From assembly GCA_002771515.1 (NCBI GenBank), contig PCTL01000001.1, forward strand, positions 7,995 through 71,994: 64,000 bases of DNA, read 5' to 3'. Origin of the DNA: Candidatus Lloydbacteria bacterium CG22_combo_CG10-13_8_21_14_all_47_15 (lineage in GTDB: Bacteria > Patescibacteriota > Minisyncoccia > Phycocordibacterales > 21-14-all-47-15). Of the stretch, positions 34,521 to 35,427 are shown piece by piece. The translations under genes and the position numbers were made by a program. Positions within the stretch are counted from its first letter, which is position 1; each line of letters starts with the position of its first letter. The notes beneath the pieces are model-generated. The model made no database searches. It had not been told where the DNA came from and was given only the letters and a program-made list of their open reading frames with translations.

Positions 34521-34659
34521 TCTATAGGACATCAAAGAGTATAATATAAAACAAATGGACACTGGACAAGTATAAAGGACAATGGTATTATAAAACAATA
34601 AAAGACACGGCATGGATCAAGATAAAAGACAAATCCAAACAAAACCGCAAATAAAGGAC
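34521..34659 (+). repeat. array of A-rich-GACA direct repeats (ATAAARGACA, 4 full copies plus 3 shorter GGACA copies), iteron-like
   Basis: GGACA/AGACA-ending units end at 34530, 34560, 34567, 34580, 34606, 34630 and 34659. The last four are ATAAA[AG]GACA spaced about 24-29 nt apart. The array spans the upstream region and the first codons of the 34612 ORF. Confidence 0.55.
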
Positions 34660-35427
34660 ATAGCTATACGCCATGCCGCCGATTCTTGGTATCTATTTTT
34701 ATTGAAAAAAGCAGAACGGCTTTCTTCGGCTGTTTACATTGTCACAGCGTTAATTCACAACGGGGATCCATTGAAACATAAGTTACGCGAAAAGAGCATT
34801 TTCATCGTATCGGACATCGCACAATCTAGATATACTGAAGACAGGAAAGAAAATGTCTTTTTAAAGATAGCCGATCTGATAAATGAAGCTCTGTCTTTTA
34901 TTGAAATAGGAATGACTGCCGGAGTGATTTCATCTATGAACGCGACGGTTCTCAAGAAAGAATATTCTGACTTATCCGCGCTTATTGAAAAAAAAATTGT
35001 TTCTGCCACGGAGCCGCCAAGCGAAGTGTCTTTTCGTAAAGGTTTTTTTGACGAAACAATGCCGGCTTTGTCTGTTAAAAAGCAATTGTTTCAAAGAAAA
35101 GAACGGTCTTTGCCAAAATATGCCACACCTGAAAATATTGTTTCTGCGCCGTTTCGTGGCGAGCTTCAAAAATTAGACAATGCCGATAGCTCTAATAGGA
35201 CCGGCGATCACGCGCAAGAGGAACGACATAAAAAAATAATTACTATTTTCCAACAAAATAAGGAGGCGCTTGGTATAAAGGACATTGCAAAATATGTGAC
35301 CGGATATAGTGAAAAAACTCTCCAACGAGATTTGATAGAGCTTGTGCGGCGTGGAGTAGTGCAGAAAGCGGGCGAGAGGCGGTGGAGCCGGTATTTTATG
35401 CCTCATGCGAATAACGAAACGGTCTAG
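34612..35427 (+). CDS. hypothetical protein with a C-terminal winged-HTH-like domain
   Basis: 271 aa. The C-terminus …ALGIKDIAKYVTGYSEKTLQRDLIELVRRGVVQKAGERRWSRYFM resembles a DeoR/MarR-type wHTH; the N-terminal domain is unknown. Confidence 0.55.
   Translation: MDQDKRQIQTKPQIKDIAIRHAADSWYLFLLKKAERLSSAVYIVTALIHNGDPLKHKLREKSIFIVSDIAQSRYTEDRKENVFLKIADLINEALSFIEIGMTAGVISSMNATVLKKEYSDLSALIEKKIVSATEPPSEVSFRKGFFDETMPALSVKKQLFQRKERSLPKYATPENIVSAPFRGELQKLDNADSSNRTGDHAQEERHKKIITIFQQNKEALGIKDIAKYVTGYSEKTLQRDLIELVRRGVVQKAGERRWSRYFMPHANNETV

Follow-up and report, generated by a model that had tools for sequence, protein, structure and literature searches.

We analyzed a 64,000-nucleotide stretch of the Candidatus Lloydbacteria bacterium CG22_combo_CG10-13_8_21_14_all_47_15 assembly (contig PCTL01000001.1, positions 7,995 to 71,994 of the forward strand; hereafter called the window, whose numbering we use throughout), in which an array of short direct repeats overlaps the start of a gene for a predicted DNA-binding regulator. 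The gene, open reading frame (ORF) 34612..35427 on the plus strand, encodes a 271-aa protein with 100% identity to a hypothetical protein from a Candidatus Lloydbacteria metagenome-assembled genome (MAG). The order of genes at the locus is recA, a small Glucodextran_B-like gene, and ftsK, all on the opposite strand, and then the regulator gene, followed on its 3′ side by a spacer of 400–900 nt, a gene for a protein of ~1200 aa, and a gene for a tetratricopeptide-repeat (TPR) protein. The large protein of the window is a 1214-aa surface protein encoded at 36306-39950 on the plus strand. A sequence-only reading of this DNA had interpreted the array chiefly as part of an iteron-type replication module and, as an alternative, as a set of autoregulatory operator sites. 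Our analysis favors the alternative: judged from comparative sequence data, the array is probably a multi-site operator for autorepression by the product of ORF 34612-35427.

Seven units ending in RGACA span positions 34522-34660, all on the plus strand (starts at 34527, 34557, 34564, 34577, 34603, 34627, and 34656), and a separate repeat finder returned the identical units. Four of them are full ATAAARGACA copies that start at 34572, 34598, 34622, and 34651; their exact spacing of 26, 24, and 29 nt agrees with the distances of about 24–29 nt first noticed for this array. The decamer occurs eight times in exact form in the 64-kb window, compared with 0.35 ± 0.56 expected, and 0 of 100 shuffles reached eight. 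Six of the eight copies fall in or just 5′ of ORF 34612-35427 and two lie off the gene. In ~680 kb of flanking DNA from orthologous loci, there is no other cluster of three or more units.

The units are interleaved with two putative promoters. The first, P1, has a TATAAT consensus match as its −10 box (34540..34545, plus strand), which is flanked by motif units and lacks a good −35 element; just 5′ of it lies a degenerate motif copy, CTATAGGACA (8/10 matches, 34522..34531, plus strand), which contains the RGACA at 34527. One orthologous locus (L001) carries AAAGGACA at the equivalent place before its own TATAAT, and a motif-flanked TATAAT is present in most orthologous loci. The second promoter, P2, was returned by a promoter scan as TGGACA (34563-34568), a 17-nt spacer, and TATTAT (34586..34591, plus strand), with a TG before the −10 box and 10 of 12 matches. 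Two overlapping degenerate copies, CAAATGGACA and ACACTGGACA (34552..34568, plus strand), precede its spacer, the second of them providing the −35-like TGGACA; an exact copy, ATAAAGGACA (34572..34581, plus strand), lies within the spacer; and another exact copy, ATAAAAGACA (34598..34607, plus strand), is located 5 nt ahead of the ATG, at approximately the transcription start of P2. The P2 pattern, AGACA-N5-TATTATATA-AGACA, recurs in eight orthologous loci (L024, L027, L031, L037, L062, L065, L067, and L073).

The array continues into the gene, as had been proposed. The annotated start is supported because orthologues align from the first residues, and therefore the copies at 34622 and 34651 lie within the coding sequence. 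The former, ATAAAAGACA (34622..34631, plus strand), is read in frame +1 as D-K-R-Q (gAT AAA AGA CAa); the latter, ATAAAGGACA (34651..34660, plus strand), is read in frame 0 as I-K-D (ATA AAG GAC ATA, I-K-D-I). Two further exact copies are found deeper in the gene. One is inverted (34892..34901, minus strand) in the part that encodes a four-helix bundle (peptide ALSFIE), where the protein sequence alone may maintain it. The other, ATAAAGGACA (35275..35284, plus strand), encodes I-K-D in the first helix of a winged helix-turn-helix (wHTH) domain; the KDI peptide is conserved there, so the DNA and protein levels are inseparable at this site.

We then compared 66 non-redundant orthologous loci (67 for some counts). 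Between −100 and +50 of the start codon, sense-strand AARGACA is found at 0.67–0.98 per 50 bp against a background of 0.013, a 50–75-fold enrichment across the 66 loci. A second zone, at +450 to +800, contains 0.33–0.46 per 50 bp, and minus-strand copies are modestly enriched at +150 to +300; neither ftsK nor the DNA 3′ of the stop codon showed AARGACA enrichment. The 348 5′-proximal and the 257 intragenic RGACA sites each gave a position-frequency matrix that reads A-T-A-A-A-R-G-A-C-A. At least three RGACA units lie at −150 to +100 in 63 of the 67 loci, with a median of five. The distances between noncoding sites show a period of ~10 bp, with peaks at 11, 19–21, 30, and 49–51 and a Rayleigh z of 25 at T = 9.5–10. 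The proposed helical-phase spacing thus holds family-wide, whereas the array of the window itself follows it only loosely. What orthologues share is the motif and the array, not the detailed spacing of the repeats.

Orthologue upstream regions contain a σ70-type promoter (TTGACT, 17–18 nt, TATAAT) whose spacer holds an inverted half-site, TGTCY, and whose −10 box is followed at once by GGACA; in many orthologues, the two together form a TGTCC-N10-GGACA palindrome spanning the −10 box. A further motif copy is often located ~10 nt 5′ of the −35 element. Many loci also have a second promoter, TTGACg-17-TATTAT, whose spacer and start site each carry a unit; P2 of the window is of this second type (TGGACA, the unit at 34572-81, TATTAT, and the unit at 34598-607). 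The composite of a −10 box followed by RGACA was found 30 times at the regulator promoter and 0 times at any other promoter. Orthologues therefore share a conserved, enriched motif that overlaps the own promoter of a gene for a protein with a predicted DNA-binding domain.

Sites with a strong sense bias, ~6:1 in the noncoding leader and ~13:1 in the linker region of the gene, could also act in the mRNA, where A-rich AAAGGACA units would be bound by a protein, possibly the gene's own product, and control translation or stability. A copy is often found 1–9 nt 5′ of the ATG, a position in which AAGGA could also serve as the Shine-Dalgarno sequence, and Avd-type bundles bind RNA in diversity-generating retroelements (DGRs) (PMC6182149). 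However, conserved copies are found in nontranscribed DNA (5′ of the −35 element, inverted in the spacer, and abutting the −10 box), a ~10-bp phasing is a property of duplex DNA, and half of the units are AAAGACA and contain no GGA. In the linker, the encoded residues account for the sense bias, being hydrophilic (K-D or K-G-H) in one orientation and hydrophobic (V-S-F or C-L) in the other. Because there are sites in nontranscribed DNA, an inverted site, and a ~10-bp period, recognition in duplex DNA rather than an mRNA element is indicated, and we regard the latter as very improbable.

The intragenic copies use all three frames, for example K-D-I/N/K/T in one, K-G-H, K-R-Q, or K-G-Q in another, and K-K-T-E in the third, and they concentrate in the segments for the disordered N-terminal tail, the linker, and the first wHTH helix. 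Most orthologues have 3–6 more copies in the linker, at +450 to +800 of the coding sequence (DKGH, DKRH, KDN, and similar peptides); such clusters are seen in L004, L006, L007, L013, L015, L034, L048, L057, and others. When synonymous codons were permuted within each gene, the shuffled sequences held far fewer copies than the real ones: 133 ± 8 against 312 observed in the whole coding sequence (z = 21.6), 36 against 89 in the first 120 nt (z = 12.7), and 84 against 184 from nt 400 onward (z = 14.7). We rejected the idea that the repeats are a by-product of a peptide repeat, as there are noncoding copies too, three frames are used, and the counts exceed those of the synonymous shuffles. Because of this excess, the N-terminal IKDI/KKDI peptides, of which IKDI is conserved at the orthologue N terminus, and the DKGH/DKRH peptides of the linker are best read as translations of a DNA signal.

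The product of the gene is predicted to consist of a disordered tail (aa 1–24), a four-helix bundle of the Avd/23S-rRNA-IVP type (aa 25–132, nt 34684-35007), a disordered linker (aa 133–196, nt 35008-35199), and a DeoR-like wHTH (aa 197–262, nt 35200-35397) with an invariant SEKTLQRDL helix and a GERRWSRY wing. The AlphaFold2 (AF2) model contains two confident domains, the bundle and the wHTH, both with a predicted local distance difference test (pLDDT) score above 90 (~91 for the wHTH). All Pfam matches of the query are sub-threshold: HTH_DeoR (PF08220) at aa 205–252, with 16.6 bits against a cutoff of 21, and the 23S-rRNA-IVP four-helix bundle at aa 31–126 (PF05635, E = 0.097, improving to 2.7e-4 in the best family member). 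The NCBIfam result is consistent with Pfam (NF008912, 26.7 bits against a cutoff of 124). Among 16 family members, HTH_DeoR matches 12 at E ≤ 0.1 (best 6.6e-6), 23S_rRNA_IVP matches two, and bAvd (PF22296) matches one, at a sub-threshold 8e-4. Together with the AF2 model, these matches bear out the earlier view that the protein ends in a DeoR-like wHTH.

The bundle is an up-down four-helix bundle of ~110 aa that can be superposed on 2gsc, 2rld, and 4dwl. Known proteins of the Avd/23S-rRNA-IVP type (PF22296, PF05635; PDB 4dwl, 8ub7, 2gsc, and 2rld) are stand-alone proteins of ~110–120 aa, whereas here the bundle is fused to a wHTH. We found no literature description of such a fusion, and the genes called in the five loci inspected include no DGR reverse transcriptase. 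The wHTH fold resembles Fur/PerR, MecI/BlaI, Z-alpha, Rpa2, and TubR, none of which is a specific best match. The HTH, which is N-terminal in DeoR-family regulators, is C-terminal in this protein, and no DeoRC sugar-phosphate sensor domain was matched in Pfam; the other domain is the four-helix bundle. Wherever the motif is invariant, so too are the recognition helix SEKT[ILV]QR[DE]L and the wing GE[RK]RW.

A trans-acting factor other than the encoded protein, such as a response regulator or a global repressor, might bind the motif and have the wHTH gene as its most heavily regulated target. The link between the wHTH and the motif is indirect, direct repeats of ~10–11 bp are also typical of OmpR/PhoB-type regulators, and a second small cluster is found in comF of a few close relatives. 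Apart from that cluster, however, dense arrays occur only at the regulator gene, both in the window and in the ~680 kb of flanks; the array accompanies the gene in 63 of 67 loci from very divergent lineages; and the DNA-binding domain that the gene itself encodes has a recognition helix that is invariant. These observations make a separate factor unlikely.

The same protein data bear on the proposal of an iteron-type Rep gene beside an AT-rich origin with a DnaA box, forming an integrated plasmid-like replicon. Iterons are ~17–22 bp long, are regularly spaced at ~22 bp, and lie inside an origin that also contains DnaA boxes and an AT-rich element for unwinding. The locus resembles those of iteron initiators (RepA/RepE/π, Pfam Rep_3) in that direct repeats adjoin and overlap the start of a winged-helix gene and, in many orthologues, in the inverted pair TGTCC-N10-GGACA over the promoter, as in rep autorepression. 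It differs in the fold of the protein, in the unit of 10 rather than ~20 bp with irregular spacing, in the lack of an origin context, and in having no homologues on mobile elements. No Rep family was matched in a hidden Markov model (HMM) search of the 16 family members, and none of the listed fold matches is a RepA/RepE/π-like structure; instead of WH1-WH2, the protein has a single wHTH and a four-helix bundle. A non-Rep wHTH architecture and unconserved detailed spacing are largely what the sequence-only reading had named as evidence against its own proposal.

The origin part of that proposal was based on the noncoding region 3′ of the gene, which is 876 nt long, has 35–44% GC, and contains one perfect TTATCCACA (35718-35726, plus strand, outside the array). 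The box is present as described; its context is that of a promoter. It is followed by a −35-like TTGCGA (35735-35740) and a TATAAT (35758-35763), both on the plus strand, which form a putative promoter of the surface-protein gene. A perfect, same-orientation TTATCCACA follows the regulator gene in 58 of 64 loci, 29–34 nt 5′ of a TATAAT and with a TTTGCA/TTGCGA −35 element in between. In 1.18 Mb of fetched loci, TTATCCACA occurs 137 times compared with 12.3 expected, and a −10-like hexamer stands at that offset from 54% of the boxes but from 3.1% of random positions; TTATCCACA also precedes comF in four genomes. On this sequence evidence, the TTATCCACA at 35718 is a promoter-proximal element of the downstream surface-protein gene. 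DnaA, or another factor, could thus regulate transcription widely in these reduced genomes; we found no literature on promoter-proximal TTATCCACA.

Further perfect TTATCCACA boxes of the window lie at 17377-17385 (minus), 24795-24803 (plus), and 49588-49596 (plus). A one-mismatch box, TTTTCCACA, at 34422-34430 (minus) faces the divergent ftsK, which starts at 34369, and in some orthologous loci (L009, L084, L085, and L087), the part of the intergenic region nearer to ftsK contains a perfect TTATCCACA; ftsK may thus have a box-type promoter as well.

Between the putative promoter and the surface-protein gene lies a leader of ~535 nt (~35770-36305) that is 72% identical to the corresponding DNA of L001 (4480-5095) over 632 nt, whereas the neighboring proteins are only ~50% identical to their L001 counterparts. 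Near-invariant blocks are found at 35764-35800, 36050-36195, and 36240-36305, along with hairpin-like segments. An Rfam search of 35400-36400 in E-value mode gave only spurious miRNA-hairpin matches (36045-36127) and no family. The leader may be a structured 5′ untranslated region (UTR) or an unknown RNA element. With the surface-protein promoter and the conserved leader, the long AT-rich noncoding region is explained without replication.

Neither a cluster of DnaA boxes nor a change in the sign of GC skew, both typical of an oriC, was seen in the window. DnaA boxes with up to one mismatch number 15 compared with 12.8 expected and are dispersed rather than clustered; GC skew is positive over the entire 64 kb, the cumulative skew rising monotonically without a switch; an oriC usually adjoins dnaA/dnaN, and a crude regular-expression test of the six-frame translation of the window returned no DnaA signature peptides.

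The distribution of the gene likewise argues against a mobile replicon. A word-indexed search returned 16 homologues; an exhaustive profile search returned 2217 cluster representatives at E < 1e-30 and 5107 at E < 1e-3, and a scan of GTDB species genomes returned at least 572 relatives. There is no Pfam family for this regulator. The record titles of the relatives name Paceibacterota/Parcubacteria (Nomura-, Yonath-, Campbell-, Taylor-, Zambryskii-, Kaiser-, and Vogelbacteria), one Roizmanbacteria, and many MAGs labeled "uncultured Candidatus Saccharibacteria." The family is also carried by the complete genomes CP174359.1 and OY970290.1. The divergent neighbor is ftsK in 63 of 66 loci, recA is present in 58 of 66, and the giant protein of ~1200 aa in 42 of the 45 with enough flanking sequence; in L007, the block adjoins a ribosomal-protein operon. 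The recA/ftsK synteny holds down to 27% identity, and no homologue was found in PLSDB or INPHARED (both by tblastn) or in IMG/VR. The locus is therefore core chromosomal DNA and not an integrated plasmid. Given the other fold, the 10-bp unit, the missing plasmid, phage, and viral homologues, the synteny, the uniformly positive skew, and a TTATCCACA box that is a fixed-distance promoter element, a Rep-iteron system is extremely improbable.

A further alternative draws on partition systems: the array and the intragenic sites would nucleate a locus-specific nucleoprotein complex, such as a centromere of the ParR-parC or TubR-tubC kind or a landmark used with FtsK, as the primary function, with autoregulation as a by-product. 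Head-to-tail repeats of ~10–11 bp that straddle the promoter of their binder are the parC/tubC layout, the site cluster is apparently confined to one place in the sampled DNA, ftsK is the conserved divergent neighbor, and TubR is among the weak wHTH fold matches. On the other hand, Fur, MecI, and Z-alpha are matched at least as well as TubR, nothing ties the protein physically to FtsK, and no cytomotive partner NTPase (ParM/TubZ/ParA-like) adjoins the gene in any of the loci inspected with called genes, where its neighbors are always the divergent ftsK and the ~1200-aa surface protein. We consider such a complex quite unlikely as the primary role, although somewhat less so than an mRNA element. 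In ParR-parC of plasmid R1 and TubR-tubC of pBtoxis, as is proposed here, many short repeats straddle the promoter of the binder and double as autoregulatory sites; the present system differs in lacking a partner NTPase gene, in being chromosomal and conserved, and in the weakness of its fold match to TubR. ParR itself is a ribbon-helix-helix protein.

Taken together, the enrichment of the motif, its overlap with the promoter, its phasing, and its exclusivity to this gene argue well for autoregulatory operator sites. In the mechanism that we propose, each wHTH would read one ATAAARGACA unit, and the four-helix bundle, joined to the wHTH by a flexible linker of ~60 aa, would probably serve as an oligomerization hub. 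The units lie 5′ of, within, and just after the σ70-type −35/−10 elements and run on in head-to-tail order, via the 5′ UTR, as far as the first codons. An oligomer bound to them would thus keep RNA polymerase from the promoter and shield both the transcription start and the ribosome-binding region, resulting in negative autoregulation. The linker copies of orthologues, 450–800 nt farther 3′, might be captured by the same oligomer via looping or act as a roadblock.

Several points weigh against this interpretation. The protein and the motif are linked by co-occurrence, and as both are invariant in the sample, they provide no covariation. Because the orthologous loci share ancestry, they are less independent than the z-scores and the periodicity statistic imply, and significance is overstated. 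No target of the regulator beyond its own gene was identified in the 64 kb of the window plus ~680 kb of flanks. The promoter elements are consensus matches. In the window, the units are spaced 7–30 nt apart and only loosely phased, and the linker-coding part of the gene has no motif cluster; auxiliary intragenic sites are thus not equally numerous in all lineages. Finally, any idea of a pentamer derives, by analogy, solely from fold similarity to pentameric relatives.

Such an assembly is nevertheless worth describing. Avd is a pentameric barrel (PMC6182149), and 2gsc and 2rld were deposited with five chains. A pentameric barrel with five wHTHs on tethers of ~60 aa might gather approximately five promoter units and the intragenic units into a wrapped particle, possibly serving as a landmark beside ftsK and recA. 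We put this forward as a speculative extension of the operator model that is doubtful at present. If it is true, the binding code spans noncoding DNA and three frames of the gene's own disordered segments, and the particle could be more than a repressor: a unique chromosomal landmark in the reduced genomes of Paceibacteria.

Among known regulators, the closest parallels are the PhoB/OmpR boxes, in which the winged helix reads an asymmetric unit of ~10 bp and the units are arranged head-to-tail with a period of ~10–11 bp, overlapping promoter elements. The array studied here has the same layout, and its reading by a winged helix is proposed, but the protein lacks a receiver domain and instead carries, N-terminal to the wHTH, an Avd-like bundle followed by a long disordered linker, and the array consists of 5–9 units that run into the coding sequence, compared with 2–4 for PhoB/OmpR. 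The extra copies several hundred base pairs downstream in the gene are reminiscent of LacI/DeoR auxiliary operators (e.g. lacO2), plausibly bridged by an oligomeric repressor; unlike those, they lie in the regulator's own gene, are multiple, use three frames in a disordered linker, and would be served by an unrelated oligomerization module. Without a receiver, a partner NTPase, a DeoRC domain, or a Rep fold, the regulator is outside the PhoB/OmpR, parC/tubC, DeoR, and Rep families. We found no literature description of a family-wide, self-associated array or of three-frame embedding in a protein's own disordered segments, and neither the motif strings nor promoter or transcription-factor motifs of Patescibacteria led to any relevant publication.

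Patescibacteria (the candidate phyla radiation, CPR) make up a large share of bacterial diversity, and few of them are culturable. To our knowledge, almost nothing is known about their gene regulation. The present analysis defines an unannotated, Patescibacteria-wide regulator family with a probable recognition sequence, ATAAARGACA, and a conserved promoter/operator architecture, and in vitro tests of this pair of protein and DNA need no culture of the organism. The analysis also offers a case of a DNA-binding code that appears to constrain synonymous sites and to shape disordered protein segments. For annotation, it illustrates that in these genomes, where TTATCCACA is a common promoter-proximal element, direct repeats combined with a wHTH and a DnaA box can be mistaken for a rep-ori module.

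Outside the regulator gene, a possible second cluster of four motif copies, two exact and two with one mismatch, lies at 16897..16949 on the plus strand, antisense in a comF-like gene (ORF 16675-17394, minus strand); the copies point toward the divergent pilM (17442, plus strand). In an alignment-based scan of 80 comF loci, 79 of which were usable, the copies are kept, at synonymous positions, in five (L088, L089, L091, L092, and L095, the closest relatives) and are absent from 74, including L090. The peptide encoded at the cluster (EMSFID..SF..VLY) is partly conserved. The cluster is ambiguous between a lineage-restricted second target and a coincidence of peptide and motif.

Another candidate cluster, at 49805-49893, was rejected, because its AAGACA strings derive from the Lys-Thr codons of a Lys-rich basic protein and the full motif is unmatched. 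That protein, encoded by a small ORF at 49767-49915 (plus strand), comprises 49 aa and is rich in Lys, Arg, and Thr (MARKRKVAKKAVKKTTKKRK...); its AAG-ACA codons mimic the AGACA core, and a TTATCCACA box is located ~180 nt 5′ of it. At the Rfam gathering threshold, the matches in the whole window were one tmRNA gene (212-595, minus strand) and two tRNA genes (7032-7103, minus strand; 11980-12070, plus strand), and nothing else.

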